A stretch of DNA of 64,000 nucleotides from Bacteroidales bacterium. Its GTDB lineage: Bacteria; Bacteroidota; Bacteroidia; Bacteroidales; VadinHA17. This document shows positions 25,154 to 49,619 of the stretch, in pieces. The DNA lies in assembly GCA_049792755.1 (NCBI GenBank), contig JBARBF010000135.1:25415-89414 (forward strand), read 5' to 3'. Every line of letters starts with the position of its first letter. Position 1 is the first letter of the stretch. The position numbers and the translations under genes were made by a program. A model generated the notes under the pieces. That model saw only the letters and a program-made list of their open reading frames with translations. It ran no database searches and was not told where the DNA came from.

Positions 25154-25640
25154 TTTCAGCAAAAAGAATACTACTCCGGCTTTGTCAAAGTTGGATCAAT
25201 AACTAAATTTGGACCTGGCAACGCAGACCAGGAACATGTTATTGGATAATTTTAAAATCAATACTCTATTGCTTTTTTCTGTCTGCGTTGGAGGGGTGTC
25301 TGCTATAATATTGCTTTTTTATGGATTGTTCGTCAGGTATCCGGGAAAGGTAAATAAAGAACAATCTGTTTCATTGGATGTTTGAGTCCGATTGACAATC
25401 AAGCCTTATTCCTAAACGACTTCTTCAAATTTATTATAAGATATTATCTAAAAATATTTATATTTTTCTGTAATTTCGTATTGTTCCTTAAATCCATTAA
25501 GCAGGAACAGGCGTTGACTTATAAATTTTCAAAACAGATCCAATTACTTGTATGCCAAAGGGATTATAAAAAATAAGCTTCAACTCCAATATACATTAGA
25601 ATAATTGGCCAAATAAAAAAACAAAACCAGAAAATAGAAT

Positions 25641-31187: not shown

Positions 31188-32531
31188 TTAATTCAGATCA
31201 ACGATTAAGTCATTATCCTTAGGTGGTAAATCGGTATAAAGTCCATATATTATATTTGCCAGATCGGGTGAGATGGCAGAAATGGCCTCAATCTCTTCAT
31301 TGGCATCTGTTGAAAGAGTCTCATCTCCTGCAAAATGAGCCATCATAGATTCGGCAAAAACCGGAGAAATCTGAGTTGCAACATCTTCAGGCACATTATA
31401 AGGTGCATTCATCAGCATATATTTAGCCTGAATTTCAAACCCGTTGAATGAAAAGGCTTTTTCATAGTCAGGAAAGCTAACCCCATTTAATCCGGGATAG
31501 TTTATGTGTTCGATATGTTTTGTTTTGATATATAGCTTATTATTGACAAGATTAATAATTCTGTACGGAGAAGCATAAATCACGGGGGAGCCGGTCTCAA
31601 TATCAACCAGTGAAAGGTTACCAAGAGTGCGTTGAGTTGCATCGTTGGCATGGAAATGACCTGTGAACATTACTTTTAAGCCTGCTTTGATAAACTCATC
31701 AGCCCGGGCACCCCAGTTATCGACCAGATAATCAGGGAATATTACAGACTCACCCATGAAATGCTCCACAATACCATGATGCATCATTCCAATTACGGTT
31801 TTGCCCTTTGCGCTGGCATCAGCGAGCTGTTTTTTTGCCCATTGCATGGTAGCATCTTTTATATTACCTGCCACTACACAAAATTGAGGTGTATTGTTAT
31901 AATATTCATTTGCGTCTAAAGCAAGAATACGCAGGTCTTTAAAGGGTTCAGAAACATAACTTAATGAGTTGGGATCTTTCGCAATAGCAGTCTTGTAACC
32001 AAAGTCGGCATACAACGATTTAAAGTTTTCAGGAGTGATGGTTGGCACTGAAACAGTGTTATCTCCGTTAAATAACTTCGCATCAGGATTATTAATATCA
32101 TGGTTCCCCGGTATAACGAGAACTTTAATATGATTTAAACTTAAAATCTGTAATTGTTTTATAACCGATTTGTGACTGACAAGCTCACCATCTTTGGTCA
32201 GATCGCCTGAAATCAACACAAGATCGGGTTTTTCAATCAATAAATTATGAATGATTTGCTGAAGGATAGCGCTGCTTTCAGCAAGCAATTTGGGATCCTG
32301 CATCAGGTACATCTGAAACGCAGTTCCATCTGCCTTAAGTAGCGATGGGTCCATTAAATGTAAGTCAGATAATACGGCAATTTTTACCGTTTTGGAATTA
32401 ATGCAGAAGTCGCCATTTCCGTCTTTAGAAACCGGCTGCAACCGAAAATTCTGGTCCTCTTTGTTACAGGCGACAATGGCGAGTAACATAAAAATGGGAA
32501 CAAAAAATCTAATTTTTTTCATAGAAATCAT
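31188..32531 (-). CDS. Calcineurin-like metallophosphoesterase lipoprotein
   Basis: Lipobox AIVAC. Phosphoesterase motifs IAVLSDLHL, GDLTKDGE, GNHD, MMHHG, GHFHAND. An alternative ATG lies at 32522. Confidence 0.85.
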   Translation of the reverse strand: MISMKKIRFFVPIFMLLAIVACNKEDQNFRLQPVSKDGNGDFCINSKTVKIAVLSDLHLMDPSLLKADGTAFQMYLMQDPKLLAESSAILQQIIHNLLIEKPDLVLISGDLTKDGELVSHKSVIKQLQILSLNHIKVLVIPGNHDINNPDAKLFNGDNTVSVPTITPENFKSLYADFGYKTAIAKDPNSLSYVSEPFKDLRILALDANEYYNNTPQFCVVAGNIKDATMQWAKKQLADASAKGKTVIGMMHHGIVEHFMGESVIFPDYLVDNWGARADEFIKAGLKVMFTGHFHANDATQRTLGNLSLVDIETGSPVIYASPYRIINLVNNKLYIKTKHIEHINYPGLNGVSFPDYEKAFSFNGFEIQAKYMLMNAPYNVPEDVATQISPVFAESMMAHFAGDETLSTDANEEIEAISAISPDLANIIYGLYTDLPPKDNDLIVDLN

Positions 32532-32543
32532 TTTTAGTCTGTC

Positions 32544-32606
32544 TACTCTTATAGCTTTTCGACATTCGCTCCGTACTCTTTAAAGGATTTTCAGGGATCT
32601 CCTAAT
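32544..32606 (-). repeat. 63-nt conserved intergenic element, copy A (partner at 35349-35410)
   Basis: Hand alignment gives 55 matches in 63 columns with one 1-nt gap. Shared core tactctttaaaggattttcagg. Confidence 0.8.
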
Positions 32607-32631
32607 TTGCACGCTTACAGGCAGGCAATTT

Positions 32632-33366
32632 TTATCTTATTTTACCAAATTCGAGTCTGATGATAAATCCGGCAATACTCTTTTCATGATTTAAGTTTGC
32701 ATATCCGGTTAAACCGATTCCTATATATCTCGAGATTAAGCTTAAGTCAATCTCAATCGGTATGGCAGGAGCCAAAATATGTTCCGTTTTATATGAGTCA
32801 AATTCAAACAATCCGTATATTCCGGGATTTCTTTCCAGAAATGCGCCTCTTTTTACACCTCCAATTAACCCCAATCCACCGGATATTGATAAACGTACTA
32901 TTTTTGATTTGGAAACCCTTCCGTAGAGAAAGCCGATGTCATAAAATTTTTCTCCCGGTACCGGGCCAAAAAGATTGAACTCAGATTCGCGAATAAATCT
33001 AAGCTTCCAGTTATTTCCATTCTTCAGAAAGTTTGCATCTGCAAAAAAAACAAAGCCTGCAGCTCCTTTATTACCCTCCGGACTACTCGCATAGTAACCT
33101 CCTAATCCAAAATCTCCGTACAAATTAATGGTTTTCTTATTTTCATTCAGAAACGTTGTATCCAGGGTGCAATTCCCAAACCTGTCATCAATAAATGCCG
33201 CTGATTTAAGATAAGATTCTTGCAGCATTTTATTCTTGCTCGGATAGTTGCAAAAGGCCAAGCCGGAATGAGCCATAAGATTTATACAAAGCATTAAAAT
33301 ATAGAAGGAAAAGGAAGCTCTGTAACTTTCAGAGGGATACTTTTTAGTCGAAATTTCTTTTTTCAT
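32632..33366 (-). CDS. Hypothetical exported protein, probable outer-membrane beta-barrel
   Basis: Hydrophobic N-terminal segment. Alternating Gly/aromatic beta-strand-like pattern (GLGGYYAS, GFVFFADA, GLGLIGG, GIGLTGYANL). No known family recognised. Confidence 0.5.
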   Translation of the reverse strand: MKKEISTKKYPSESYRASFSFYILMLCINLMAHSGLAFCNYPSKNKMLQESYLKSAAFIDDRFGNCTLDTTFLNENKKTINLYGDFGLGGYYASSPEGNKGAAGFVFFADANFLKNGNNWKLRFIRESEFNLFGPVPGEKFYDIGFLYGRVSKSKIVRLSISGGLGLIGGVKRGAFLERNPGIYGLFEFDSYKTEHILAPAIPIEIDLSLISRYIGIGLTGYANLNHEKSIAGFIIRLEFGKIR

Positions 33367-33406: not shown

Positions 33407-33428
33407 GAAATCCAATAATCGGGCCAAG
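33407..33428 (-). promoter_or_regulatory. Candidate sigma54 (-24/-12) promoter
   Basis: Minus strand reads cTTGGCCCGATTATTGGatttc. TGGCCCG-N4-TTGG versus the consensus TGGCACG-N4-TTGC. 19/22 identical to the 41882-41903 block, and about 45 nt upstream of the ATG at 33366. Confidence 0.5.
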
Positions 33429-33490
33429 TCATATATAGATATGATATACATGTATTTAGAAAAAATAAGCTTTCTTAACCGGATTATTTT

Positions 33491-33530
33491 TGTAGCGTTT
33501 TGCTACAGTTCATTGATTCGTAATACTACA
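33491..33530 (-). promoter_or_regulatory. Candidate enhancer (UAS) block with TGTAGC-N5-GCTACA palindrome
   Basis: tgtagcgttttgctacagttcattgattcgtaatactaca. 32/40 identical to 41966-42005. The gap to the TGG of the -24 element is the same 65 nt as in the other copy. Confidence 0.5.
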
Positions 33531-35436: not shown

Positions 35437-36525
35437 TCAGTTCAACATCGGCACATTTGTTTTCAGTCTGCCATGAATCCTGCGGAAAATATCAACGATA
35501 TCAGGTCCGGTGATAGTAAGCCCGTGGTTCTTTAGTCCGACTTCTGTTCTTTCAGGCGAAGATGTCTTTTTCAGGAGTTTAACGACATTTTCAGCCAGTT
35601 CCCTTGTACCGCACGGATAGCTTTGAGAACTGCAAAGAACATCATCTATCCATGCATGCACATGAACTATGGCACCTGTTTTGGGAAATTCCCTGTAAAT
35701 CATGTAATGTTCGATGGCATCGACTGAAACTCTGATTCTTGGATCATATTCAGGTGGAACTGAAACAAGCATCTCACCGGCTTCTTTGTCAAAACCTTTG
35801 ACCAGAAGCATATCTTTTCCGATCCCTTTCAGGTTTGATTTGTCAACTCCGCGGGCAGTCATCCAGTAGGAGGTACCTCCAATGTTATGGTTCATATTCC
35901 TGATACTGAGATTACCGTAGCTTAGTCCTTTAATCTGGTAAAGTCTGTACAACTGATCAATAAGATCCTTGTCCAGGAATTCTATCAATGGAAATGGCGC
36001 CGGCAGAACCCCAAGATTGTGCAGTACCCTTCCAAAAGCTTTTAAATCTTCAATTTCAGGGATTATTTCATTTTCCTCCAGAATAAGATCATCAAAAATT
36101 TTGTTCCTTAATACAAAATGAGAACTGATAACAGGGTACATGTATTTGTACATATTATCAGGATCATAATTGAATTCAGTGAACCCGACCTCCGGAGTGA
36201 TACTGTAGGCTTTAGGATGTTCTTTTCCATCCTTAAGTGAAATGCAAAAGAGAATATTGGATATACTCTTTACCAATGCCACATAACATGATGCTTTAAG
36301 ATCAGGTACATAATCTTTAACTAAAGTAATTGAAACAACCATTTCTTCCTGGCATTTCCTCCTGAAAGCTTTAGGTGATTCCAGATCAATAATATTCAGG
36401 ACAAAACTGGAATTTTCATCCGATGATACCTGTTCATTGCCTTTTTTTGCAATTTCCCCGGTTAATTTATTAGCCAGGTACAAAAGTTCAGGACAATCAG
36501 ACACTCTGTTAACTTTAAATTTCAT
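35437..36525 (-). CDS. Class II aldolase/adducin-fold protein with an unrecognised N-terminal domain
   Basis: C-terminal half has GNLSIR...WMTARGVDK, SVDAIEHYMIY, GAIVHVHAW (His-rich metal-site context) and LKNHGLTITGPD. Confidence 0.6.
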   Translation of the reverse strand: MKFKVNRVSDCPELLYLANKLTGEIAKKGNEQVSSDENSSFVLNIIDLESPKAFRRKCQEEMVVSITLVKDYVPDLKASCYVALVKSISNILFCISLKDGKEHPKAYSITPEVGFTEFNYDPDNMYKYMYPVISSHFVLRNKIFDDLILEENEIIPEIEDLKAFGRVLHNLGVLPAPFPLIEFLDKDLIDQLYRLYQIKGLSYGNLSIRNMNHNIGGTSYWMTARGVDKSNLKGIGKDMLLVKGFDKEAGEMLVSVPPEYDPRIRVSVDAIEHYMIYREFPKTGAIVHVHAWIDDVLCSSQSYPCGTRELAENVVKLLKKTSSPERTEVGLKNHGLTITGPDIVDIFRRIHGRLKTNVPMLN

Positions 36526-36553
36526 AGCTAAAGAATTTTATTTTACTTTCATA

Positions 36554-37939
36554 TTAAATCGTATCAAGAGAGATCATATGATCAAATGACTCTCTCTCTC
36601 TGAGAAGTCTGTGACCGCCATTAACAACGGAAACGATTGCCGGCCGGGGAAATCCAAAAGAAGATTCCCAGGAAGTAAAATATGCTCCGCTGTCAAGAAT
36701 AGCTAACATCTCACCTGCAGCCACCTTTGGCATTACCTTGTTTCTGTATACAACATCAGCAGAAAAACAGCCGGGTCCGGTAATTGTCACCTTTTCTGAA
36801 GCTTTTCTCCTGACATCATTGCATAAAACAACTTCATGGTGTTCATAATATGTAGGCATGGTTAAAGTTCCGATTCCGGCATCTGCAACAAGCCACTTTT
36901 TCAGACCTATCCGGTCCTTTACCTGATGTATCCTTAAAAGCAATATCTGATTGGGACCTGTTATACATCTCCCTGGTTCTAAAATCAGTTCAGGGATTTT
37001 CTTATCACCAAAAAGAGAAAGGATACCTTTCGTAACAGAATCAGCAAAATGTATAAAAGATAATTTCCTGTTTACCGATCCTCCGGAATTGAGTAAATCG
37101 AATGCCTGATATAATAACAATTCCAAAGTTGTCATTTCACGAGAATTGGGTACGCCCAATCCTCCTCCAATATCAAGCACCTCAACTCTGAATCCTGATT
37201 TTTCAGCATCATTTATGATTCTTTTAAGCCCTATAAGCGCTTTTCTGTAATCATCTGTATTTTGAATACCGGAACCGATATGGAAATGAAACCCTCTGAA
37301 CCTGACTCGTTTCATTTCTCTGATTTTTTCAAATGCAGCTATGACCTCGCCACTTTTCGGATCCAGACCGAAAGGAGAATCCGTGCGGCTGCCGGCAGAG
37401 CTTCCACTGTTCATACCTGACGGAACAAAATCAGGATTTATCCTGAACAAAACTTCAGCGCTTTTATTAAGGGTATTGCAAATGCAATCAATCTTTTCAA
37501 GCTCAAAAAGCGAATCGACATTTATGAACCGGATATTATTTTCAATACAAGCTTCTATGAGCTTGTCTGTTTTATAAGGTCCGTTGACAATTATATCATT
37601 GCCTGAATATCCCAGTTTAAGAGCCAGCATCAGCTCAAACTCACTCATTACTTCAGCTTTGATGCCTTCCTGCTTTATGATCTTAATTATACCGGGAACA
37701 GGATTACATTTAAATGCATAATGAACTGATACTGTCCCCGGATATTTTAATTTTATCTTTCTCAGAAATGATTCAGCAGTAGCACCCAACCTTGTTTCAT
37801 TAACCACATGAAGTGGTGTTCCATAAATATGACCAAGCTCTAATGTGTTACATCCTCCTATAATAAGCTCTCCGCTCTTGTTAGCATCAAGACCCCAACC
37901 TTTTATCAACTCGCTTAATATCATTTTATCATACAACAT
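36554..37939 (-). CDS. Fold-type III PLP-dependent decarboxylase (Orn/DAP/Arg decarboxylase family)
   Basis: YAFKCNP (PLP-Lys context), HFHIGSG, LDIGGGLG, EPGR, GPGCFSADV, LDSGAY. Confidence 0.85.
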   Translation of the reverse strand: MLYDKMILSELIKGWGLDANKSGELIIGGCNTLELGHIYGTPLHVVNETRLGATAESFLRKIKLKYPGTVSVHYAFKCNPVPGIIKIIKQEGIKAEVMSEFELMLALKLGYSGNDIIVNGPYKTDKLIEACIENNIRFINVDSLFELEKIDCICNTLNKSAEVLFRINPDFVPSGMNSGSSAGSRTDSPFGLDPKSGEVIAAFEKIREMKRVRFRGFHFHIGSGIQNTDDYRKALIGLKRIINDAEKSGFRVEVLDIGGGLGVPNSREMTTLELLLYQAFDLLNSGGSVNRKLSFIHFADSVTKGILSLFGDKKIPELILEPGRCITGPNQILLLRIHQVKDRIGLKKWLVADAGIGTLTMPTYYEHHEVVLCNDVRRKASEKVTITGPGCFSADVVYRNKVMPKVAAGEMLAILDSGAYFTSWESSFGFPRPAIVSVVNGGHRLLRERESFDHMISLDTI

Positions 37940-37948
37940 ATCCTTAGT

Positions 37949-39055
37949 TTATAACTGTTTTGAATAAATAGCGAAATGTTTGCCGGGACTCATCTCCAGT
38001 AAACCGGCAAGACTTTTTCCAAGGTTTTCATCTGAAATCCAGGTTGTGGATAATGTTGAGTAATTCCTGAATATTTTGACCGCAGATCTTAGTATCAAAG
38101 CAAATACCCGTTTATTCCTGAATGCTTTTTTTATTCCAGCAGTAAAAATTACAAGTTCTTTAATGTTTCTTCTTCTCCATAACAATCCGGGAATGTGCCA
38201 TGACCTGATTCTGCCGTCATGGTATTTAAGTAAGCTGTTAATGTTTAAAACTAACTGTGTCGCACCTACAGGTTTCCCTTTATATTCTGCGATCAATATA
38301 AGCCCTGGTCTGGTACCAATAAAGAGATACTTTGCAGAGAACATATATTCCTTTAATGAAAGCGGAAGGAAAAACTTGTTATCCTCAAATGCATCATTAT
38401 TGATATCTCGCAATATGTCCAGATCTCTTTTAAATCTGAGAATATTAAACTTCCTGATGGTGATATCACTGCTGATAGTATCTTTTTCAGGGACCTTGTA
38501 TTTCTTATCAAGCGTCGCTGAAATGTTGCTATTAATCCTGGTATGAAACAGGTTTGATTCGGAAAAGCCTGCCCCTTTAATCAATCCGGGATAGTAAGAA
38601 GGATTATATGTTTCGAAGAAAACAGGAGGCGAATTATAGTTATCCAATAAGATTCCCAGTTCAGAATAGTGATTTGGATTAAATGGTCCTTCAAGATATT
38701 CGGCACCGGCTGCCCTGCTATCAGCTTCGATTTTTTCAAACAGACATTTCACCGCAAGGCAGTCATCGGGTGAGTCGAAAAAACCAAAAAAGGCTGACTT
38801 CTTATTCCATTTTGTCCAGTGAAGATGGTTTATTACCATTATTGATCTGCAAACAGGCTTTCCATCGGAATAGCAGACGTAAATCTTTAAAGAAGCATAT
38901 AAGAAATATGGATTCTTCAGTGGATCAAGAACTCTCACTATTTCGGAACGCTGGGGAGAAATCCAGTTCGGATCGTTACGATAGATTTCCTTAGGAATTG
39001 AAAGAAAATCATCCAAACCATCTTTTATTGTTATTTCTTTGACTAATAATGACAT
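37949..39055 (-). CDS. GNAT-fold-like acyltransferase family protein (uncharacterised subfamily)
   Basis: N-terminal FLSIPKEIYRNDPNWISP...NPYF, FFGFFDS, EGPFNPNHYSELGILL and YNPSYYPGLIKGAGF match a pattern I recall from proteins annotated as N-acetyltransferase. Overlaps the upstream gene by 13 nt. Confidence 0.5.
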   Translation of the reverse strand: MSLLVKEITIKDGLDDFLSIPKEIYRNDPNWISPQRSEIVRVLDPLKNPYFLYASLKIYVCYSDGKPVCRSIMVINHLHWTKWNKKSAFFGFFDSPDDCLAVKCLFEKIEADSRAAGAEYLEGPFNPNHYSELGILLDNYNSPPVFFETYNPSYYPGLIKGAGFSESNLFHTRINSNISATLDKKYKVPEKDTISSDITIRKFNILRFKRDLDILRDINNDAFEDNKFFLPLSLKEYMFSAKYLFIGTRPGLILIAEYKGKPVGATQLVLNINSLLKYHDGRIRSWHIPGLLWRRRNIKELVIFTAGIKKAFRNKRVFALILRSAVKIFRNYSTLSTTWISDENLGKSLAGLLEMSPGKHFAIYSKQL

Positions 39056-40911
39056 ATATTCTTATTTATTCGTTCTACCACATATGCCTTATAAATAAAG
39101 GAGCGATCTCTCCTGCTTAGCATATCTGACAAACTCATATCGGGAATTATCTGATCTGCAAACATTTCAGGACGATTTCTTGTCACAAGATGGTTTCGAT
39201 ATGTTATAACCGCACCATCCTTTCCACTCCTGAGGGTCTCCAACAGCAGAAGTGTAAACTCCTCAACCGACATCCACTCAAAAATGTTTGTGAAATTGAA
39301 TTTTGAAATTGTATTTGCCGGCAGAGATCTTAAAAACTCCTGACAGCCAGAAGTGACTATTTCAACACGATCGAGGCGGGTACGGATTTTGTTATAATTT
39401 TCTTCTTTCAGGTAAACAGGTAAACTACCATTGAAATAGTTTCCGGAAAGAATATATGCCAGAAAATAATTATCTCTTACCGGTAGTTCTGTCAGAGCTT
39501 TTCTGACTGCCGAACGATAGTATTTTTCAAAAGAGAATGACGGCTCAAGATATTTATAGAAAGCTTTATCGAACAACATGCTTGCAAAGGCACGACTTAA
39601 GAATATCCGGCAAAACAGCTTCCATCTGAAATTATCCCACTTCTTTTTGAACAGAATTCTTTGTTCTTCAACAGATGAGGCATTAAACATCTCATTGATA
39701 ATTTTCTTACCTATAAGAATTCTGAATACCTTTTTCAGCAGATGCATATATCTCTCATATTTTCCACAATGGATGATGCCGAGGTTTATATCAGCCTTTT
39801 TTTTGCTCCAGTACGTCTGCGCTTCTTCAGAAAGAACAGGTTTGATTCTTTCATAGAATTCCCATCGGCATAATGAATGCCGTACTCCGAAGAATTCGAG
39901 AATTTCTTTGTATTCAAGTGTTTTAAAGGCACCAATTTTAAGTGAGAGAAGATAATTCTGATACCGGTTCATATCGAGACATATCACTTTTGCAGGATCA
40001 TCAATGAGGAATGCCAGTGCATTGCACCCACCAGATGTAATTGAAAAAATTGTGTCACCGGGTTTTGTTCTGAAAGCAATTCTGTCTATCTCCGGATCTT
40101 CCCAGCATTGAGCATATAATATGTCCCTGAAAACTTTTGAACGGCTGAAATCCCTGCTTTTAAATGATGATTTTTCCTTCTCCGCGATATCTTTTGAAAT
40201 GCCTATAATTATATGAATTACAGCCCAGTCTATTACAGCCGGAAGTCCGATCAGAATGGCAATAATAAACTTACCGGTGAATGATGCAACTATCAGGCCC
40301 GATATAAAGAGAACATATTGGGCGTTATGGCGGAATCCATCATAGTTTATACGAAAATTCAAAGGAACCTTAAAAAGATTCTTTATTTGTTCTAAACCAG
40401 GTATGAGATCCGGAATTGAATGGACATAATCAGTATAAGTACTTCCAAATTCTGTTGCCAGTTTTTCTTCTTCATATTTAATAAGCTGGCGGTAATGCAG
40501 GAATATAAGAACCGGTATCAATAAACCGACAGGTTTCAAACACAACGACAGAGCTGTAAATGCTATCAGGTCAGCAAAATAAATAGGATTCCTTACAAAA
40601 TTATATGGCCCGGTAAGATTCAGTCTGCTGTTTTGAATCCGGAATGTCATAACGGTTTTTGAAGTCAGAATGCTTCCGGCCCACATCCGGATCAGAGAAG
40701 CAATCAGCACAAATAAAGCTATGATAAAATATCCCAGGCGAATTGATATACCTGCAGGCAATCTGAACCAGCTGCCTGCAATTTCTAATGTAGATTGCGT
40801 ATTTTTAAATGATAAAAAAGACAGGATTGTGAAAATAGAAACTATTGAAAGAGAAATGAAAATTCTTATTTCAAACCATGTTTTTCGAACTTTAACCAAA
40901 AGAGACTTCAT
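39043..40911 (-). CDS. Fusion protein: N-terminal ICMT/PEMT-like membrane methyltransferase plus C-terminal BtaA-like (DUF3419-type) SAM:diacylglycerol 3-amino-3-carboxypropyl transferase domain
   Basis: N-terminal part: RMWAGSIL...TGPYNFVRNPIYFADLIAF...YEEEKLATEFGSTYTDY. Middle: extra TM helices. C-terminal part: YAQCWEDPEIDRIAF...GDTIFSITSGGCNALAFL...VICLDMNRYQNYLLSLK...FFG. Confidence 0.7.
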   Translation of the reverse strand: MKSLLVKVRKTWFEIRIFISLSIVSIFTILSFLSFKNTQSTLEIAGSWFRLPAGISIRLGYFIIALFVLIASLIRMWAGSILTSKTVMTFRIQNSRLNLTGPYNFVRNPIYFADLIAFTALSLCLKPVGLLIPVLIFLHYRQLIKYEEEKLATEFGSTYTDYVHSIPDLIPGLEQIKNLFKVPLNFRINYDGFRHNAQYVLFISGLIVASFTGKFIIAILIGLPAVIDWAVIHIIIGISKDIAEKEKSSFKSRDFSRSKVFRDILYAQCWEDPEIDRIAFRTKPGDTIFSITSGGCNALAFLIDDPAKVICLDMNRYQNYLLSLKIGAFKTLEYKEILEFFGVRHSLCRWEFYERIKPVLSEEAQTYWSKKKADINLGIIHCGKYERYMHLLKKVFRILIGKKIINEMFNASSVEEQRILFKKKWDNFRWKLFCRIFLSRAFASMLFDKAFYKYLEPSFSFEKYYRSAVRKALTELPVRDNYFLAYILSGNYFNGSLPVYLKEENYNKIRTRLDRVEIVTSGCQEFLRSLPANTISKFNFTNIFEWMSVEEFTLLLLETLRSGKDGAVITYRNHLVTRNRPEMFADQIIPDMSLSDMLSRRDRSFIYKAYVVERINKNICHY

Positions 40912-40930: not shown

Positions 40931-41860
40931 TCAAGCTTTAACCATGATTGCTGCGGGTAAAATTTCTATATCAAAGGGAGATTTTCCAAACAGCTCCCCG
41001 TCGCTTTCCAGAGAAATCTCAACGTCTGACATGATCCTCAGTTTTTTACACCTTTTTATCGAACAATGAGGTGACATAACATGCGTTCCCGAGTATACTT
41101 TTGAAAGATTCATGATTCTCTGGCCTGTCTTCATATCATTTATAGATAATACATCAAAAAGACCATCATTAAGTTTTGCATCAGGGGTAAGTTTCATCCC
41201 TCCCGCACATTCGGAACCGTTCCCTACGACAAGACCGATAAGCAATAATTCCTGAAATGGTTCATCATCGAATCCAACCATTAGTGGCAGAGGTTTCATA
41301 AACATCGCCAAAACTGTGGCAGCAAATCCGAAAGCTAACGGACCTCCAAAAATTTTAGCTTTTTTTCCGACAAGCGAAGCGACCTCATTGCCAATACCGA
41401 TCTGGCACTCATTTACAAACAACCGGTTGACTGTATTACCTGAATTATCATGGCAGGAAACACTGCCCAGATCCAATGCCCTGAATCCAGACTGAAGAAG
41501 CTGTTCAATCTGCTGTCCGGTCGAATGAGGGATGTTAAGAGTTCTGGCATAACCACCCCCTGTTCCACAATTTATCACTCCCAGTTCACAAAATGGATTT
41601 AATGGTTTCCCTTCCAGAAAAAATCCATTAACAACTTCATTTATTGTTCCATCACCGCCTACTGCAATTATCATAGAAGCACCATCAGTAATAGCTTTTC
41701 TGGTAATGAACGTTGCTTCATCTTTTTCTCCGGTAAAAACGATAGTTATCTCAAAGTCGCATGAACTCTTGATTTTCTGTAATAAGGACTGTGATATTCT
41801 TTTTGCCTTTCCGTTTCCTGCAGTCGGATTAATCACGATATGAACATATTTACTATCCAT
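40931..41860 (-). CDS. Diacylglycerol-kinase-fold lipid kinase (YegS/DAGK catalytic domain family)
   Basis: Start set at ATG 41860 (MDSKYVHIVINPTAGNGKA). IIAVGGDGTINEVVNG. The track's TTG start at 41890 would overlap the promoter-like block. Confidence 0.8.
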   Translation of the reverse strand: MDSKYVHIVINPTAGNGKAKRISQSLLQKIKSSCDFEITIVFTGEKDEATFITRKAITDGASMIIAVGGDGTINEVVNGFFLEGKPLNPFCELGVINCGTGGGYARTLNIPHSTGQQIEQLLQSGFRALDLGSVSCHDNSGNTVNRLFVNECQIGIGNEVASLVGKKAKIFGGPLAFGFAATVLAMFMKPLPLMVGFDDEPFQELLLIGLVVGNGSECAGGMKLTPDAKLNDGLFDVLSINDMKTGQRIMNLSKVYSGTHVMSPHCSIKRCKKLRIMSDVEISLESDGELFGKSPFDIEILPAAIMVKA

Positions 41861-41881
41861 TTTATTTGTTTTTAGAACAAT

Positions 41882-41903
41882 GAAATTCAATTATCGGGCC
41901 AAT
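41882..41903 (-). promoter_or_regulatory. Candidate sigma54 (-24/-12) promoter of the five-gene operon
   Basis: Minus strand reads aTTGGCCCGATAATTGAatttc. TGGCCCG-N4-TTGA. The -12 element lies about 27 nt upstream of the ATG at 41860. Confidence 0.5.
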
Positions 41904-41965
41904 CTGTATAACAGTAAGATCTACAACTATATATAACAGTATTTGATTTTAATATGAACTAAAAA

Positions 41966-42005
41966 TGTAGCGTTTTGCGACAAATAATTGATTCAGAACG
42001 CTACA
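41966..42005 (-). promoter_or_regulatory. Candidate enhancer (UAS) block: TGTAGCGTT...AACGCTACA inverted repeat
   Basis: tgtagcgttttgcgacaaataattgattcagaacgctaca. Lies 65 nt from the -24 TGG and 59 nt upstream of the divergent regulator ATG at 42064. Confidence 0.5.
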
Positions 42006-42063
42006 ATTATTATCTTTACTAATATTTGGTTGTTGACAGCAAATAATCATTCATATACCTTAC

Positions 42064-43449
42064 ATGAAATCAGACAGATCTGGTAGCATATTGGTCGTTG
42101 ACGATGATAATGATGTTTTATATACAGCGAGGCTTGTATTGAGAGGACTGTTCGACAAAGTTGATACCCTCGATAGTCCGGGCTTAATACCCGATTATCT
42201 GAAATCATGCAAGTACGATGTGATTTTACTTGACATGAATTATACCCGTGGCAGCACATCAGGTAAAGAAGGTTTGGAGTGGCTCGGAAAAATACTCCAG
42301 ATTGATCCTGCTGCTAAAATATTGACCACAACCGCTTATGGTGAAATCAACCTGGCGGTCCAGGCTATGAAAAAAGGTTCTGTCGATTTCATTACGAAAC
42401 CATGGAACAAAGAACAGCTGGTTACATCTGTCAGCAATGTTTTAGCCCAGAACCAGGGAGAGAGAAATGTCAGCAAGATTAAAGGAAGTAAGAACGGACA
42501 AGTAAATCAAGGGAACAATAAGTACCCTGAAGTTATCAGCAGGTCTCCCATAATGGCTAAAATCAAGGAAACCATAAAAACAGTAGCTTCAACAGATGCC
42601 AATGTTTTGATACTTGGAGAAAATGGAACAGGTAAAGAGCTGGCAGCCTGGGCTTTGCACAGTGAATCATTAAGAAGCCGGAATTCCTTTGTTCACGTCG
42701 ATCTGGGTTCAATACCGGATACTCTTTTTGAAGCTGAATTATTCGGCCATACCCGTGGTGCTTTTACAGATGCAAAGGAAGAACGGGCCGGAAGATTTGA
42801 AGCAGCTTCCGGCGGAACATTATTCCTCGATGAGATTGGAAACCTCACAATGCCTTTACAGGCAAAGATTCTTACTGCAATTCAGAACAGGGAGGTAGTC
42901 AGAATAGGAAGCAATCATACTATTCCTGTTAATGTCAGACTTATATCTGCCACGAATATGCCCTTGTACGAAATGGCTGATTCATTCCAATTCAGGCAGG
43001 ACCTTCTTTATCGTATTAACACTGTTGAAATTACACTTCCGCCACTTAGGGAAAGAAAAGAAGATATAAACCTCCTGGCAGATTATTACCTGGAACTTTT
43101 TTCAGGACAATACGGCAGACAAGGGATAAAACTGACGGACGAAACGCTACAGAAACTCAAAGAATACCACTGGCCGGGAAATATCAGAGAACTTGCCCAC
43201 GCAATTGAAAGAGCAGTTATTCTTTGCAAAAGCGAAACTCTTAATCCTGACGATTTTATCCTGAGAACCAGATCTGTGCCGGCTCAATTGTCGGATGAAC
43301 CTTCTGTGCGTGTTGAAGATTATGAAAAAATGGCAATCAGCAATGCAATGACCAAACATAACGGGAATCTTTCGAAAGCGGCGGATGAAATGGGTATTGC
43401 AAGGAGTACTCTCTACCGCAAGATTTCACGATTCGGGATTAATAACTGA
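42064..43449 (+). CDS. Sigma54-dependent (NtrC-family) response regulator / bacterial enhancer-binding protein
   Basis: Receiver ILVVDDDNDVL...DVILLDMNY...KPW. AAA+ Walker A GENGTGKE, sigma54-contact loop GAFTDA (variant of GAFTGA), LFLDEIG, WPGNIREL. C-terminal HTH GNLSKAADEMGIARSTLYRKI. Confidence 0.92.
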   Translation: MKSDRSGSILVVDDDNDVLYTARLVLRGLFDKVDTLDSPGLIPDYLKSCKYDVILLDMNYTRGSTSGKEGLEWLGKILQIDPAAKILTTTAYGEINLAVQAMKKGSVDFITKPWNKEQLVTSVSNVLAQNQGERNVSKIKGSKNGQVNQGNNKYPEVISRSPIMAKIKETIKTVASTDANVLILGENGTGKELAAWALHSESLRSRNSFVHVDLGSIPDTLFEAELFGHTRGAFTDAKEERAGRFEAASGGTLFLDEIGNLTMPLQAKILTAIQNREVVRIGSNHTIPVNVRLISATNMPLYEMADSFQFRQDLLYRINTVEITLPPLRERKEDINLLADYYLELFSGQYGRQGIKLTDETLQKLKEYHWPGNIRELAHAIERAVILCKSETLNPDDFILRTRSVPAQLSDEPSVRVEDYEKMAISNAMTKHNGNLSKAADEMGIARSTLYRKISRFGINN

Positions 43450-43520: not shown

Positions 43521-44957
43521 ATGCAGAATATCTGGAATTACGTCTCAAACTTCGGAACAAAAGGAGAGGAAGAGCAATTAAGCCGGAGAACCATTGTTCT
43601 TACAAATCAGCTGAATTTTGTGGTGCTCATCACTATGTTGTTATTGCTGATATATACTCTCATTGGACAAAGGCTCACTCATAATATACTTTCTTACGGA
43701 ACACTACGGGTGGCGCTGACACTTATCCTAAGCTTCCTCAACCTGGTTGTTGCCAGGTATGGCTACACTAAAATAAGCCGGCTGTCGCTGATTTTCCTTC
43801 CCTCGATAGTTTTCCTGCTAGGTCCAACTCTTATAGGATATGTTCAGGAGGAAGAATTTACTTACTATCCCTATGTTGTTATTGGGATCTCTATAATTCC
43901 GCAGTTGCTTGTGCATCCGCGCAAAGAGAAATTTATTTACTGGTTTTCTCTCTCATTTTATTTTCTGTTGGTAATATTTATAGACAGAATCATGGTTCAT
44001 TTTGGCAAACCCGAGCTGGTCGAGTCTTATATGAACAGCTATCCGATTGTCGAGAGAATAAATACTTTTTATCTCTATTACAAAATTGCCCAAATTGCTC
44101 TATTCCTGTTTATTAATGCAGGTATTTTTTATCTCAGGTTAATTAATTTCCGGTTTGAGGCTGAGTTGAGCGGTAAGAACAGCGAACTTAACGCGCAAAA
44201 TAAAGAGCTGAAAGAACAAAAAGATGAAATAGAACGTCAGAAAGATGAACTGATAAGCAAAGAGATAAATACCTGGCAAAAGCTTGTTAAAATTATATCT
44301 CATGAGATAGTGAATTCAGCCATTCCCATAACCAACCTTGCAGGGATGACTGCTCAAATGCTTGAAGATGAGTCGGGGTTAGTTCAAAAGCCGGAAAAAA
44401 TAGGCGAAGAGGTGACCGATGATATTCATCATAGCTTAAGAATTATTGAATCAAGAACACAGGGATTGATTAATTTTGTAAAGGCTACAAAAAGTCTCAC
44501 AGACATTCCGAAACCAAACCTGAGGAAGATTTCCGTGGCTGATCTGTTCGAGAGGATTTTCATACTGTACAAGGCTAAATTTAAGGAAAAAAGGGTAAAG
44601 TTTGAAAAGGAAGTTATTCCTCCGGACCTTTTTATTGAAGCTGATCTGGAACTTATTGAACAGGTAATCATAAATCTTTTTCAGAATGCTCTGGAAGCAA
44701 TGCAGGAAACATCAGATCCTCACCTTTCAATTATCGGGAAAAATGAATCTGGTCATGTTCAGATATCAATTTCTGATAATGGTATAGGAATTGGTGATGA
44801 GGTACTTGAACGTATATTCCTTCCTTTTTATTCCACAAAAGCTAACAGCTCGGGTATAGGTCTGAGTCTTTCACAACAGATCATGTTGTTGCATCATGCC
44901 CGTATTGAAGTAAGTTCAACTATAAATAAGGGTGCAACTTTTACAATGATATTTTAA
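43521..44957 (+). CDS. Membrane sensor histidine kinase (NtrB/AtoS-like H-box)
   Basis: Six or so N-terminal hydrophobic helices, coiled coil, H-box IISHEIVNSAIPI, N-box NLFQNALEAM, G1 SDNGIGIG, G2 SSGIGLSLSQQI. Confidence 0.9.
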   Translation: MQNIWNYVSNFGTKGEEEQLSRRTIVLTNQLNFVVLITMLLLLIYTLIGQRLTHNILSYGTLRVALTLILSFLNLVVARYGYTKISRLSLIFLPSIVFLLGPTLIGYVQEEEFTYYPYVVIGISIIPQLLVHPRKEKFIYWFSLSFYFLLVIFIDRIMVHFGKPELVESYMNSYPIVERINTFYLYYKIAQIALFLFINAGIFYLRLINFRFEAELSGKNSELNAQNKELKEQKDEIERQKDELISKEINTWQKLVKIISHEIVNSAIPITNLAGMTAQMLEDESGLVQKPEKIGEEVTDDIHHSLRIIESRTQGLINFVKATKSLTDIPKPNLRKISVADLFERIFILYKAKFKEKRVKFEKEVIPPDLFIEADLELIEQVIINLFQNALEAMQETSDPHLSIIGKNESGHVQISISDNGIGIGDEVLERIFLPFYSTKANSSGIGLSLSQQIMLLHHARIEVSSTINKGATFTMIF

Positions 44958-45445: not shown

Positions 45446-46846
45446 TTATTTGACATGAGAGTCTGTCTCTGTTTTATTTTCCTCCACTTCCTCGTTACTT
45501 TCAAGTTTTGCAAACTGGAGAGGCTTTTTAAAGAAATTTGTGCGGTATGCCCCGTAAATCAAACCTACTGAAAGCCAGCTTATGCCTACGATCTTAGCTT
45601 TAATCCCAAGACTGAACCAGAGGTAAAGGCATATTGAAAAACCAAGAAGAGGAACAATAAAATGTGTAAATTTTTTGTGTTCTCCGCGCACAAAATAGTG
45701 CATGAATGAAGATATATTGACCCCCATGAAGGCAACCAGAGCTCCGAAGTTGAGGAGCTGAGCGCCCAGGGGATAGCTTAGTACAAAAACGCCGCCAAGA
45801 ATTATCACCCCAATTAGAATAATATTATTTGATGGAATTCGTGTTTTTGGATTTATTTTTGCAAAGAACTTACCGGGAATAGCATTATCTCTTCCCATTC
45901 CATAAAGCAGACGTCCGGCTCCCAGATGAGCGCCTGCACCTGATCCTATTGTTGCAACAAGCAATGCCATGTTGACTGTCTGGAAAAGCCAGGGACCACC
46001 GGCTCTTTTAGCTATAAAGCAAAATGCAGTATCCTGGTCGGGAAAAGTTGAAGCTGCCTGAGGCCAGACAAGCTGAGCGAAATATACCTGCACAGATGCC
46101 AGAATACCGGTAATAATACAAACCAGTACTGTGGCCAGAAGTATGTTACGCCGGGGGTTGTGAACCTCTTCCGATAGAGTTGAAATACCATCAAAACCTA
46201 TATAAGTAAGAACCGCAAGTGAAGCACCGGCCGAGACTGAAGAAAACGTAAATGTATTAGGATCATAAAAAGGCTTTGTCCATTCTCCGGCATTTGCCGG
46301 GGGATTTAAAAAGAGATAACGTACTGCAGCTCCCAGGAAAAGAATAATAACCACTCCAAGACCGGCAGCAATTATAGTGTTTGTACGCGAACTTGATTCA
46401 ATTCCGCGGAGGTTCATGGCTGTAAAGAGACATGTAAAGGCAACGGCATAAACTCCGAAAGGTATTTCAGGAATCAGGTTTATTGCAGCTTTGCTGATCC
46501 AGATCACGCATATAATCGGATTCATGATATAATCAAAAATCATTCCCCAGCCGACAAAATACCCCAGCGAGGGATGAATTTCCCTGCTGACATATGTATA
46601 TGCTGAACCGGCGCTTGGATAAACATTTGCCATACGTCCGTAACTGATTGCAGTGAAAAGCATGGCAACCATTCCAATCAGTATGGTCGTAACTACATGA
46701 CCTTTTGCAAGGCTTGCTGCAGCGCCGTATAATGGCATAGGGGCAGTAGGCTGGATAAGAATAATCCCGTATAATACCAGTGCGGATAATCCGAGAACAC
46801 GTTTCAGACCCGGACCTGATGGAGATGAAGTATGGTTATCACTCAT
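45446..46846 (-). CDS. APC-superfamily amino acid/polyamine permease
   Basis: 466 aa, about 12 hydrophobic helices, typical APC N-terminal block LKRVLGLSALVLYGIILIQPTAP. Substrate not assignable. Confidence 0.8.
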   Translation of the reverse strand: MSDNHTSSPSGPGLKRVLGLSALVLYGIILIQPTAPMPLYGAAASLAKGHVVTTILIGMVAMLFTAISYGRMANVYPSAGSAYTYVSREIHPSLGYFVGWGMIFDYIMNPIICVIWISKAAINLIPEIPFGVYAVAFTCLFTAMNLRGIESSSRTNTIIAAGLGVVIILFLGAAVRYLFLNPPANAGEWTKPFYDPNTFTFSSVSAGASLAVLTYIGFDGISTLSEEVHNPRRNILLATVLVCIITGILASVQVYFAQLVWPQAASTFPDQDTAFCFIAKRAGGPWLFQTVNMALLVATIGSGAGAHLGAGRLLYGMGRDNAIPGKFFAKINPKTRIPSNNIILIGVIILGGVFVLSYPLGAQLLNFGALVAFMGVNISSFMHYFVRGEHKKFTHFIVPLLGFSICLYLWFSLGIKAKIVGISWLSVGLIYGAYRTNFFKKPLQFAKLESNEEVEENKTETDSHVK

Positions 46847-47033: not shown

Positions 47034-49619
47034 ATGAAAACACGCATTGTCTTAACATTCAGCTTATTGATTGCTATTGGCATTTACTGTCGAGGACAAA
47101 TTCCTTCAGGCGAAAAGCTTATTCTTAAAGACAACTGGGCAATACAGTCGTCCAAAGAGATTAAATCAGATGCAAAAGCTATTTCTACAATTGGTTTCAA
47201 AACCGATGGATGGTACACTACCTCTGTTCCAACAACCGTTCTGGCTGCACTGGTTGCAAACAAAGTATACCCCGATCCATACTATGGAACCAACATCAAT
47301 AATCTTCCTGGCATTATTCCTTATCCGAAAAGGGATATGCCTGATGGCAGTCCGTTTAAAGTTGCATGGTGGTACCGTACGGAGTTTAAAATACCTGCCG
47401 ATTATAAAAAAATGCATACCTGGCTGCAATTCCACAGCATCAACTATAAGGCCAATATATGGCTAAACGGTAAACTAATTGCCGATACTACCACCGTCGA
47501 AGGCGCCTATCGCCTGTATAATCTTGACATCACCAAGACTGCCTTGCCAGGTGAAAATAATTGCCTGGCTCTCGAGATATTTCCTCCAAAAAAAATGGAT
47601 CTTACCATTACATGGGTTGACTGGAATCCCACTACACCCGACAGAGGCATGGGCATCTGGTACGATGTTTCCCTTCATGCAACGGGTGATGTGGCGATTG
47701 AAAATCCTCAGATAATAACGAAGCTTAATCTTCCGTCAACCGATCAGGCCAGATTAACTATTACAGCAGAGTTAAGAAATGCCGGAGAGAAAAAGATAAC
47801 AGGAGTACTTAAAGGCACTATCGAGAACATCTCTCTCTCACAGGAGATTGTTCTTGAAGCAGGAGAAGCAAAAATGGTGAGCTTTTTACCTGAGACATTT
47901 CCCCAGCTGGTAGTGGCAAATCCCCGACTCTGGTGGCCACACACTGTCGGACCCCAGAATCTTTATGACCTGAATCTCAGTTTTGAAGAATCTGGAAAAA
48001 CAACTGATACTAAAAAGATCCGGTTTGGCATCCGGGAGATCACCACCTGGATGAACAATTTCGATAAACAGCATACAAAAGTATTCCAGGTAAATGGAAA
48101 GAATATTGTAATCAGAGGAGGAGGATATGTCCAGGACCTGATGTTGCGTCCGTCAAACGAAAGGATAGATGCTGATCTTATGTATGCAAAGCACATGAAT
48201 CTTAATGCTTTAAGGATGGAAGCCCCTCGCGGATCAGATTATCTGTTTGAAAGATGCGATGAAGAGGGTATTCTGGTGATGGTCGGCTGGTGTTGCTGCA
48301 GTGCCTGGGAAGGATGGAAAAACTGGACACCTCATACCGGGGATGTAGCCGAGGCCAGCTGGAAAGATCTGATTGTTCATCTGCGTAACCATCCCTCTGT
48401 TTTGACCTGGTTGTACGGAAGCGATAATTTCCCGCCCGCTGAGATTGAAAAGCGATATTTAAAAGTATTGGATGCATATGACAACACTCGTCCTTCCGAA
48501 TCTTCAGCAACTCAAGCTCCCAGTTCAGTTGCAGGGATAACAGGGGTTCATATGGGACCATATCCGAATGTTTATGCATATGAAACTCCTTCATTCTGGT
48601 ATACAAAACTTGAATTTAATACGGAAGCAGGTCCGACAGGCGAACAAATTCCTCCAATTGAGACAATGAGAATGATGATGCCTGAAAAGGATTTGTGGCC
48701 GATGAGTCCATCGTGGGATCTGCGTCTGCATAAAGCATTTTATCCAATTGCCAGGGCAGCTCTTGAATCCCGTTATGGTAAACCGACCGGTGTGGAAGAG
48801 TATTGTGTGAAATCACAAGTGTTTCAGAATGAGGCAGTAAAGGCTATGTTCGAAGCATTTGCCGGTAATAAGTACCGTTCCAGCGGGATTATTTACTGGA
48901 TGTATAATTCCGCATGGCCCAAGATGTACTGGCAGTTATATGACTATTACTTTATGCCCAACGGAGCTTTCTATGGAGCAAAAAATGCCTGCGAACCTAT
49001 TCATATCCAGTACTGTTATGATGACCATTCAGTTAAAATTGTGAATAGCTATTATCATGATTTCAATGGACTTATTGCAAAAGTGAAAATTTTCGATTTT
49101 AATATGAAGGAAGTCTCTTCGAAAAAGATGGACGCCAGGGTATCAGCTGATGGGAGTGAGAAGATTTTTACAGTTGAACCTCCCAGGGATATTACAAAAG
49201 TTTATTTTCTGAAACTTGAATTACAGGATACAACGGGAAAACCGGTGTCTTCCAATTTCTACTGGTTAAGCTCGAATGGTGATGAGAAGGCTGATTTTAC
49301 AGATCTTAATAAACTTCCTTTGGCAACTGTAAGTGTTACTGCATCGGCTATTCAAAAGGAAGGAAATAAATGCAAATTAGCTGTTACAATTGAAAACACC
49401 GGAACAGGTCTTGCTTTTGCCGTTAATCCAAAGATTCTGAAACTGACTTCAAAAGATCCTGTATTACCGGTATTCTGGGAAGATAATTATGTTTCTCTGC
49501 TTCCGAAGGAAAAAAGGACACTGGAGGTTGAATACGATTTGAAAAACCTCGATGGTGAAAAGCCTCTTTTAAAAGTTGACGGTTGGAATGTCAGTGCAAT
49601 AGAAAAGGAGATTAAATAG
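47034..49619 (+). CDS. Glycoside hydrolase family 2 (beta-mannosidase / exo-beta-glucosaminidase-like subgroup)
   Basis: Signal peptide. LKDNWAIQSS...DGWYTTSVPTTVLAALV...PDPYYG N-terminal block. WWYRTEF, FHSINYKANIWLNG, LNALRMEAPRG, WLYGSDNFPP. Confidence 0.8.
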   Translation: MKTRIVLTFSLLIAIGIYCRGQIPSGEKLILKDNWAIQSSKEIKSDAKAISTIGFKTDGWYTTSVPTTVLAALVANKVYPDPYYGTNINNLPGIIPYPKRDMPDGSPFKVAWWYRTEFKIPADYKKMHTWLQFHSINYKANIWLNGKLIADTTTVEGAYRLYNLDITKTALPGENNCLALEIFPPKKMDLTITWVDWNPTTPDRGMGIWYDVSLHATGDVAIENPQIITKLNLPSTDQARLTITAELRNAGEKKITGVLKGTIENISLSQEIVLEAGEAKMVSFLPETFPQLVVANPRLWWPHTVGPQNLYDLNLSFEESGKTTDTKKIRFGIREITTWMNNFDKQHTKVFQVNGKNIVIRGGGYVQDLMLRPSNERIDADLMYAKHMNLNALRMEAPRGSDYLFERCDEEGILVMVGWCCCSAWEGWKNWTPHTGDVAEASWKDLIVHLRNHPSVLTWLYGSDNFPPAEIEKRYLKVLDAYDNTRPSESSATQAPSSVAGITGVHMGPYPNVYAYETPSFWYTKLEFNTEAGPTGEQIPPIETMRMMMPEKDLWPMSPSWDLRLHKAFYPIARAALESRYGKPTGVEEYCVKSQVFQNEAVKAMFEAFAGNKYRSSGIIYWMYNSAWPKMYWQLYDYYFMPNGAFYGAKNACEPIHIQYCYDDHSVKIVNSYYHDFNGLIAKVKIFDFNMKEVSSKKMDARVSADGSEKIFTVEPPRDITKVYFLKLELQDTTGKPVSSNFYWLSSNGDEKADFTDLNKLPLATVSVTASAIQKEGNKCKLAVTIENTGTGLAFAVNPKILKLTSKDPVLPVFWEDNYVSLLPKEKRTLEVEYDLKNLDGEKPLLKVDGWNVSAIEKEIK

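Follow-up and report, generated by a model that had tools for sequence, protein, structure and literature searches.

A predicted two-component, sigma-54-type control region upstream of a conserved lipid operon in uncultured Bacteroidales

How is a conserved lipid operon controlled in an uncultured Bacteroidales bacterium of the VadinHA17 lineage (GenBank assembly GCA_049792755.1)? The question is raised by the intergenic region between this operon and a divergently transcribed NtrC-family regulator gene on contig JBARBF010000135.1, of which we analysed a stretch of 64,000 nucleotides (positions 25,415 to 89,414 of the forward strand), hereafter the window, whose own numbering is used throughout. 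An initial annotation of this DNA, made from the sequence alone, had proposed a sigma-54-type promoter and a palindromic enhancer in the region. From our comparative analyses, we consider it very probable that the region is the control region of a two-component, sigma-54-dependent regulon, with a second copy of the same module elsewhere in the window and further copies in related organisms.

The -24/-12 match at the lipid operon, minus-strand TGGCCCGATAATTGA at 41901..41887, proved to be present as described, with two mismatches to TGGCACG-N4-TTGC, namely C for A at the fifth base and A for C at the last. Both strands of 41700-42200 were read, and the 3' end of the element indeed lies 27 nt from the ATG at 41860. 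With the T of the promoter TGG numbered -26, the predicted transcription start falls at about 41875, which leaves a short leader of about 15 nt that is rich in A and has no Shine-Dalgarno sequence, as is usual in Bacteroidota (PMC9723704). Separated from the TGG by 64 nt is the 40-nt block tgtagcgttttgcgacaaataattgattcagaacgctaca (41966-42005), whose outer 9 nt, TGTAGCGTT and AACGCTACA, form perfect inverted repeats, as confirmed by direct reading and by script. This module (41887-42005), hereafter site A, precedes the first gene of the operon, which encodes a YegS/DAGK-family lipid kinase (40931..41860, minus strand; Pfam DAGK_cat and YegS_C). The divergent gene (42064..43449, plus strand) encodes an enhancer-binding protein, as the initial annotation had stated, with Response_reg, Sigma54_activat, AAA_lid_14 and HTH_8 domains and the motifs GENGTGKE and GAFTDA. 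It is followed by an open reading frame (ORF) for a membrane histidine kinase (43521..44957, plus strand) with a HATPase_c domain, which is co-conserved with the regulator and presumed to be its partner.

Neither the promoter match alone nor the inverted repeat alone is above chance. TGGCACG-N4-TTGC with at most two mismatches occurred 8 times in the window, against 9.9 expected. On a sigma-54 matrix that we derived from 29 intergenic Salmonella sites supported by chromatin immunoprecipitation (ChIP; PMC3844500 Table 3), site A scored 11.3 bits and ranked second of about 128,000 positions, with 4.3 such scores expected per 64 kb. The promoter of the second copy, site B, ranked fourth in the window, and 4-7 equal-scoring matches are expected per 64 kb. 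We counted 31 perfect 9-nt inverted repeats with loops of up to 30 nt, overlapping ones included (about 14 distinct), against 12.9 +/- 4.2 in first-order Markov simulations. The composite module is far beyond chance: it has a second copy in the window with identical spacing and occurs at 52 sites across related genomes and metagenomes, 40-41 of them distinct, depending on the segment compared.

Site B (33412-33530, minus strand) has a 40-nt block, TGTAGTATTACGAATCA-ATGAAC-TGTAGCAAAACGCTACA (33491..33530), of the same length and layout as that of site A. The full block, TGTAGTATTACGAATCAATGAACTGTAGCAAAACGCTACA (33530..33491), lies exactly 64 nt before its -24/-12 element, TGGCCCGATTATTGG (33412..33426), which is the only other intergenic and correctly oriented promoter match in the window. 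The two sites share the block, an A/T-rich stretch (33432..33458 in site B, by alignment with site A) and 21 of 23 bases at the promoter (TTGGCCCGATWATTGRATTTCAT). From the predicted start at about 33400, transcription would enter two genes (31188..33366, minus strand) for a 244-aa protein, which has no family match and is unrelated to the lipid operon, and a 447-aa metallophosphoesterase. Orthologues of both genes are preceded by the same module in other genomes. A third module was not found in the window; a promoter match with one mismatch at 47440-47454 was rejected, being intragenic and without a block upstream.

The wider regulon was delineated with two patterns. A promoter-only regular expression, applied to all loci and the window, gave 17 matches, 16 of which have a block 63-65 nt upstream; they include sites before orthologues of the 244-aa gene and before an outer-membrane beta-barrel gene. 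Metagenome contigs were scanned with TGTAGC-N5-GCTACA-N62-66-TGGCCNGAT, which leaves the distal part of the block and the -12 element open. This yielded 42 loci, 41 of which were analysed: 36 carry the unspecified TTG at -15 to -13 in register, and 35 of these also have the distal site. One locus (L082) has a 1-nt promoter deletion, on a contig with frameshifts, with the same distal site and gene context; four others (L073 and L109, with identical modules, L088 and L100) lack both the TTG and the distal site and serve as chance controls. Wherever the flanking DNA sufficed, an ORF on the same strand begins 25-170 nt downstream of the module. The genes behind the metagenome modules belong to about a dozen unrelated families. 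Members of the regulon include the lipid-kinase operon, the 447-aa metallophosphoesterase lipoprotein, an outer-membrane beta-barrel protein, a short-chain dehydrogenase and, without a family match, several proteins with hydrophobic signal-peptide-like N-termini and one 393-aa protein, so that the regulon looks like an envelope-remodelling programme. On several contigs the regulator gene is divergent at about 162 nt from the TGG and the opposite gene does not encode the lipid kinase. Since the regulator keeps its place while the opposite gene varies, regulator and module form a conserved unit.

This association was also seen from the side of the operon. Related loci were collected with the 622-aa fusion protein of the operon as the query, one genome per species, which gave 67 loci, all from uncultured organisms. 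Among these, the divergent regulator-kinase pair is confined to the closest Bacteroidales clade. In the 53 operon loci with at least 400 nt of upstream sequence, the promoter motif, together with the block, was present in all 11 with the regulator and in none of the 42 without it (nominal Fisher P of about 1e-11); the 11 loci represent one clade, so this value overstates their independence. In nearly all regulator-bearing loci the regulator start lies 161-165 nt from the TGG. The proposal that the regulator-kinase pair controls the operon is thus backed by strong comparative evidence, namely co-occurrence, recurrence, a fixed gap and intact regulator domains.

The block itself is better described as two 17-bp sites of 6-N5-6 geometry, separated by a 6-nt linker in an overall dyad arrangement, than as one 40-nt palindrome. 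The initial annotation was right in seeing an activator-type site here, and its single palindrome is to be replaced by this pair. The predicted distal site of site A, TGTAGCGTTCTGAATCA (41989..42005, minus strand; consensus TGTAGC-N5-GAATCA, centre at about -122), corresponds to TGTAGC-RTTCT-GAATCA at -130 to -114. The predicted proximal site, TGTCGCAAAACGCTACA (41966..41982, minus strand; centre at about -99), corresponds to the consensus TGTAGC-AAAAC-GCTACA at -107 to -91. The distal site was found in 34 of 35 distinct blocks, though it was never in the metagenome search pattern. Read on the opposite strand (TGATTC-AGAAC-GCTACA) it matches the proximal site at 13 of 17 positions, and the perfect outer arms of the block thus arise because the two sites are inverted copies of each other. 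One locus (L083, with the TGG at 367 of the oriented contig) has the sole regulon-type promoter with the proximal 17-bp site alone, the distal one being missing, which suggests that one activator site can suffice.

The block stands 64 nt from the promoter at 34 of the 40 distinct sites; at the others the gap measures 63 or 65 nt. The distal half of this gap is dissimilar between sites A and B and is not conserved across sites either. The proximal part holds a 27-nt A/T-rich element at about -58 to -32, with the consensus TATATA.CTGT.TATCTTAT.GTTATA, which is conserved across 40 distinct sites and kept even between non-orthologous promoters; in site A it reads TATATAGTTGTAGATCTTACTGTTATA (41907..41933, minus strand). 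By inspection, its core TATCTTATTGTTA matches 7 of the 9 specified positions of the IHF consensus WATCAANNNNTTR. We infer from this likeness that the element is a candidate site for a bending protein of IHF/HU type.

The promoter element departs from canonical sigma-54 promoters in a consistent manner. Among 36 distinct 28-mers, with the consensus T-TGGCCYGATWRTTGRATTYC, TGGC, G at -20, A at -19 and TTG at -15 to -13 are invariant, and T at -18 occurs in 35. TGGC with GG at -25/-24 was specified in the search patterns, yet it is present in both window copies too, and TTG stands in exact register in all 36, including the sites where the search pattern had left it open. At -22, C is found in 35 of the 36 promoters; at -12, 23 have A, 13 have G and none has C. 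The departure at -12 is therefore no accident of site A: like the C at -22, it is fixed throughout the regulon. In the intergenic ChIP-supported Salmonella sites, by comparison, A is found at -22 in 29 of 29 and C at -12 in 25 of 29. One of the four promoters without C at -12 reads TTGA (STM0649.S, TGGCACGCCTTTTGATTA), and pspA and pspG read TTGT (PMC3844500 Table 3). TGGCC occurs in ChIP-enriched intragenic sites such as proP, TGGCCTGATTTTTGC (PMC3844500). The initial annotation had considered that TTGA or TTGG might be incompatible with sigma-54; this is not the case in Salmonella, the one organism compared, where TTGA at -12 and TGGCCTGAT both occur in ChIP-supported sigma-54 sites (PMC3844500 Table 3).

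Several observations nevertheless weigh against sigma-54 dependence. The promoter lacks the canonical A at -22 and the canonical C at -12, both of which contact sigma-54, and scores only 10-11 bits on the Salmonella matrix, against 16-24 for bona fide sites. As Flavobacterium psychrophilum, also of the Bacteroidota, is reported to have typical -24/-12 promoters (PMC9723704), a phylum-wide change of specificity is not available as an explanation. The gene rpoN is absent from the 64-kb window, and neither the window nor the 1.17 Mb of fetched loci offered another sigma-54 promoter of the lineage for comparison. All supporting loci, moreover, come from one uncultured Bacteroidales clade, and the counts are not phylogenetically independent. 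A position weight matrix derived from the Salmonella sites matched the 1.17 Mb of fetched loci almost exclusively within genes, and no second enhancer-binding protein was found in the window or in these loci. In favour of sigma-54 control, rpoN is reported in 27 of 27 Bacteroidia genera surveyed, according to our reading of the table columns (PMC12316311 S1); in the corresponding promoter table no entry for Bacteroides, Flavobacterium or Porphyromonas was found (PMC12316311 S2). On the minus strand of locus L041, from a related Bacteroidales metagenome-assembled genome (MAG), we observed a canonical-looking -24/-12 element, TGGTATAAATTTTGCATA, at 127 nt from the high-coordinate end; an ORF whose N-terminus resembles a signal peptide follows 53 nt downstream. 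Should this element be genuine, it would speak for canonical sigma-54 promoters in the wider group.

The regulator has the domains expected of a sigma-54 activator. Its receiver domain (PF00072, residues 9-123) carries, by inspection, D13/D14, D57 and K112; its AAA+ domain (PF00158, E 2e-61) contains GENGTGKE and LFLDEIG as Walker A and B motifs and the loop GAFTDA; and a Fis-type helix-turn-helix (HTH) closes the C-terminus (PF02954, residues 417-457, E 4e-13). Both GAFTDA and the recognition helix RSTLYRKI of the HTH are invariant in 16 of 16 sampled orthologues. GAFTDA is listed among the variants of active enhancer-binding proteins and is found in the characterised Desulfovibrio activator DVU2106 (PMC4641369). 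The best full-length structure match is Aquifex NtrC4 (4l4u, E 4e-79), with further full-length matches to ZraR (1ojl, E 2e-75) and NtrC1 (1ny5). None of the NCBIfam equivalog cutoffs for NtrC, ZraR, AtoC, PrsR, GlrR and NtrX was exceeded: PrsR scored best with 370 bits (cutoff 502.6); AtoC scored 331 (714), NtrC 316 (559) and ZraR 314 (760). Judged by these matches, the regulator is an unnamed member of the NtrC family. The identical protein has been deposited, from a Bacteroidales MAG, under the name 'sigma-54 dependent transcriptional regulator'. Orthologues form more than 100 clusters, all of at least 72% identity and for the most part found in metagenomes of JGI and ENA; the homologue search yielded no paralogues to compare. 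The N-terminus of the kinase is of the multi-pass membrane type and has no Pfam-recognised periplasmic domain; AtoS, ZraS and similar kinases were matched over part of their length, with scores below cutoff throughout. An amino-acid permease gene (45446-46846, minus strand), convergent with that of the kinase, is syntenic in L001, L002, L004, L085 and L090. The permease is 94-97% identical in those five loci (82% in L097, a short fragment), against 74-90% for the neighbouring kinase.

Taken together, these features suggest a mechanism in which direct binding, sigma-54 dependence, the start site, the bend and the signal are all inferred. The membrane histidine kinase would phosphorylate D57 of the regulator, dimers of which would bind the two 17-bp sites at about -122 and -99 through their Fis-type HTH and assemble into an active AAA+ ring. 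The intervening DNA would be bent, probably aided by the A/T-rich element, such that the GAFTDA loops reach the closed complex that sigma-54 RNA polymerase forms at TGGCCYGATWRTTGR, the regulon consensus of the -24/-12 element. ATP hydrolysis would then open the promoter, and transcription would proceed from about 41875 into the operon for the lipid kinase, the BtaA-like protein and the decarboxylase. The same regulator would act at site B and, in relatives, before genes for the metallophosphoesterase lipoprotein, predicted exported or outer-membrane-like proteins and the short-chain dehydrogenase.

Other explanations of the same features have to be weighed. The regulator might bind the block while the conserved 15-mer is the site of another protein and no sigma-54 promoter at all, with activation or repression exerted at a housekeeping-sigma promoter, in the manner of TyrR or the NtrC of Rhodobacter capsulatus. 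This would accommodate the non-canonical C at -22 and purine at -12 and the low score on the Salmonella matrix, but it leaves as coincidence that an invariant TGGC, the G at -20 and a TTG 9 nt later follow the sigma-54 pattern. Relatives of enhancer-binding proteins that are directed to sigma-70 have lost the sigma-54 contact loop, whereas this loop is intact in all 16 regulator orthologues sampled. Furthermore, none of the 11 regulator-bearing loci showed TAnnTTTG, the -7 element of Bacteroidetes housekeeping promoters, in the 150 nt next to the gene start, a sigma-70-like site was not found in the window's copy at site A, and the fixed gap of 63-65 nt puts the activator sites at the classic distance of an enhancer. 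We regard this explanation as improbable. It is quite improbable, too, that the block serves mainly as an autoregulatory operator of the regulator-kinase operon and lies near the lipid promoter by accident. The distal site does abut a conserved AT-rich sequence, and the near-constant distance of the regulator start from the TGG would fit such a role; the block, the 64-nt gap and the promoter, however, recur before other genes without an adjoining regulator gene (in the window, L012 and L013), which marks the block as an activating site and not only as an operator of the regulator gene. The block may serve autoregulation in addition, but this cannot be its principal role.

We give very little credence to the idea that the module is a dispersed repeat, a structured RNA or a terminator hairpin devoid of enhancer function, even though a genome has several copies, the sequence of the proximal site allows a 6-bp stem with a 5-nt loop, and the block of site B lies 59 nt past the stop codon of the upstream gene. 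The unrelated distal halves of the gap show that the copies are not recent repeats, there is no conserved T-run after the stem, and every module points towards a gene that starts downstream of it. The pairing of the arms is also informative here. Changes in the outer 9-bp arms break pairs, and their covariation is below that of a shuffled control; in the proximal 6-bp stem, double changes came from one sequence only and gave G-U wobble only. Such uncompensated changes fit the site of a dimeric protein and not a hairpin, and the hairpin or terminator reading of the block was rejected. Least credible of all is a chance resemblance in AT-rich intergenic DNA, made up of a weak -24/-12 match and a 9-nt inverted repeat. 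Each motif alone does occur at chance frequency in the window, but a composite of fixed spacing that recurs at this many sites and tracks the regulator gene perfectly is not accounted for in this way.

Within the preferred reading of a two-component, sigma-54-dependent regulon, a more far-reaching version is conceivable, although we think it unlikely: the regulon would form a closed sigma-54 sub-system of its own, set apart by a distinct promoter grammar, and would control an envelope-remodelling programme to which an undescribed BtaA-like/decarboxylase pathway for a lipid head group belongs. Its basis is the fixation of C at -22 and of a purine at -12, together with a regulator loop that always reads GAFTDA instead of GAFTGA. 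The clade may have undergone a lineage-specific change in how its sigma-54 reads DNA, or the 'lock' of the closed complex at these promoters may have been weakened on purpose, so as to suit this one activator and be insulated for it.

The operon under this predicted control comprises, in order, genes for the YegS-like lipid kinase (NCBIfam TIGR00147, 157 bits, cutoff 118.65), a fusion of a PEMT/ICMT and a DUF3419 (BtaA-like) domain, a 368-aa protein without a family match, a pyridoxal phosphate (PLP)-dependent decarboxylase and a class II aldolase/MtnB-like protein, the last four at 35437..40911 on the minus strand (assigned by domain matches). The fusion protein has its best match, at 83% identity, in a fen-derived Bacteroidales MAG. 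Most of the 67 loci keep the synteny of the five-gene core, which extends across Bacteroidota, Ignavibacteriota, Aminicenantes, WOR-3, Calditrichia and Nitrospirota, and no description of this bacterial cluster was found in the literature that we searched on DUF3419 and BtaA. One may speculate that the operon makes a lipid head group of the aminocarboxypropyl or aminopropyl type derived from S-adenosylmethionine. The metallophosphoesterase downstream of site B (31188-32531, minus strand) has a lipoprotein-type N-terminus. The module stands directly before its gene in the metagenome contigs L072, L087, L090 and L105, and in several genomes the gene comes next after the lipid operon. The enzyme may have a functional link with the lipid pathway, such as in the turnover of head groups or phosphate.

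In relatives without the regulator, the operon is preceded by other kinds of sequence. Four regulator-less Bacteroidales loci (L010, L018, L040 and L057) carry an exact TAnnTTTG box, mostly TAACTTTG, within about 60 nt of the gene start, and L009, L011 and L015 have the near-match TAACTTTAC; the box takes the place in which the sigma-54 module would be expected. In other phyla, roughly every second locus has T(T/G)ACA direct repeats 11 bp apart. Two or three such repeats were observed about 100 nt upstream of the lipid-kinase gene in L029, L032, L038, L042-L053, L056, L059 and L066. They resemble boxes of the PhoP/OmpR type, and in the Ignavibacteriota group they lie just after a response-regulator gene of the OmpR/PhoB family; in L048, a gene for a large multi-pass kinase is located upstream of the OmpR/PhoB-family regulator gene. 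In these phyla the operon would thus appear to be under a different class of two-component control.

On the other side of site A, the distal site abuts ATTATTATCTTTACTAATATTTG (42006..42028, plus strand), which lies 36-58 nt before the regulator start codon and is near-invariant in regulator-bearing loci. This sequence is a candidate housekeeping-type promoter of the regulator operon, and we speculate that binding at the distal site may also affect it. A dyad, ATTTGC-N9-GCAAAT, is located between the distal site and the regulator start codon at 42024-42046 (plus strand), where the window reads ATTTGGTTGTTGACAGCAAAT. It is kept in most regulator-bearing loci and is near-perfect in L007 (17 of 18 bases self-complementary), and could be a hairpin in the 5' untranslated region or the operator of some other factor. 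We also considered TGGTTGTTGACAGCA at 42027-42041 as a sigma-54 promoter that faces the regulator gene, and rejected it by inspection, as its spacing is wrong (GG-N9-GC) and it is not conserved in orthologues.

The significance of these findings lies in several directions. An uncharacterised and widely conserved lipid operon gains a testable regulatory input, consisting of a histidine kinase and an NtrC-type activator, and a small envelope regulon is defined in peat and wetland Bacteroidales. Material on how much of the consensus sigma-54 needs is provided by more than 35 natural promoters of sigma-54 type, all without the canonical A at -22 and C at -12. The operon, moreover, appears to illustrate regulatory rewiring: one clade has a sigma-54 module before it, some related Bacteroidales loci have a housekeeping-type box and other phyla OmpR-type direct repeats. 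What goes beyond the routine are the fixed non-canonical promoter bases, a regulon directed at the envelope and the replacement of the module by other types in other lineages; current understanding is not overturned by the module.

Among known systems, enteric NtrC, the paradigm of a response-regulator activator with tandem upstream sites, and its target glnAp2 are similar in the domain order of the regulator (receiver, AAA+ sigma-54 domain, Fis-type HTH) and in having two dyad-symmetric 17-bp sites of 6-N5-6 geometry some 100-125 bp before a -24/-12 promoter. The NtrC site, TGCACC-N5-GGTGCA, has this same geometry. The present regulator is not an orthologue of NtrC (TIGR01818, 316 bits, cutoff 559), and its half-site is TGTAGC. 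Its site centres are 23 bp apart, whereas those of NtrC at glnAp2 are roughly 32 bp apart; its promoter lacks A at -22 and C at -12, and its targets are lipid and envelope genes instead of nitrogen assimilation. NifA, whose upstream activating sequence TGT-N10-ACA is a dyad bound by an enhancer-binding protein about 100 bp upstream, often with an IHF site between, provides a further likeness in the TGT...ACA dyad and its distance. Here, however, the dyad is TGT-N11-ACA (17 bp) with half-sites TGTAGC, and the regulator has a receiver domain in place of GAF.

ZraSR and zraP of E. coli and Salmonella, a sigma-54 two-component system for envelope stress and its target, resemble the locus in the divergent arrangement of regulator operon and target, the shared intergenic binding sites and the envelope-related targets. 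Many regulator orthologues are annotated by JGI as 'HydG' (= ZraR), and the ZraR structure 1ojl is matched at E 2e-75. The order here is regulator followed by kinase, and the score is 314 bits against a ZraR cutoff of 760. In contrast to ZraSR/zraP, no conserved -24/-12 element faces the regulator, so that one arm alone appears to be sigma-54-dependent, and unlike ZraS the kinase has a multi-pass membrane N-terminus that lacks a periplasmic domain recognised by Pfam. PrsK/PrsR, which is associated with PEP-CTERM/exosortase systems, gave the best NCBIfam match of the regulator (TIGR02915, 370 bits, full length), and the decarboxylase of the operon weakly resembles the exosortase-associated PLP decarboxylase TIGR03099; both scores are below their cutoffs (370 against 502.6 and 145 against 478), and no exosortase or PEP-CTERM genes were seen near the locus. 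Set beside these systems, the module is an ordinary kind of bacterial control element, the promoter of which is off the textbook sequence at two positions.

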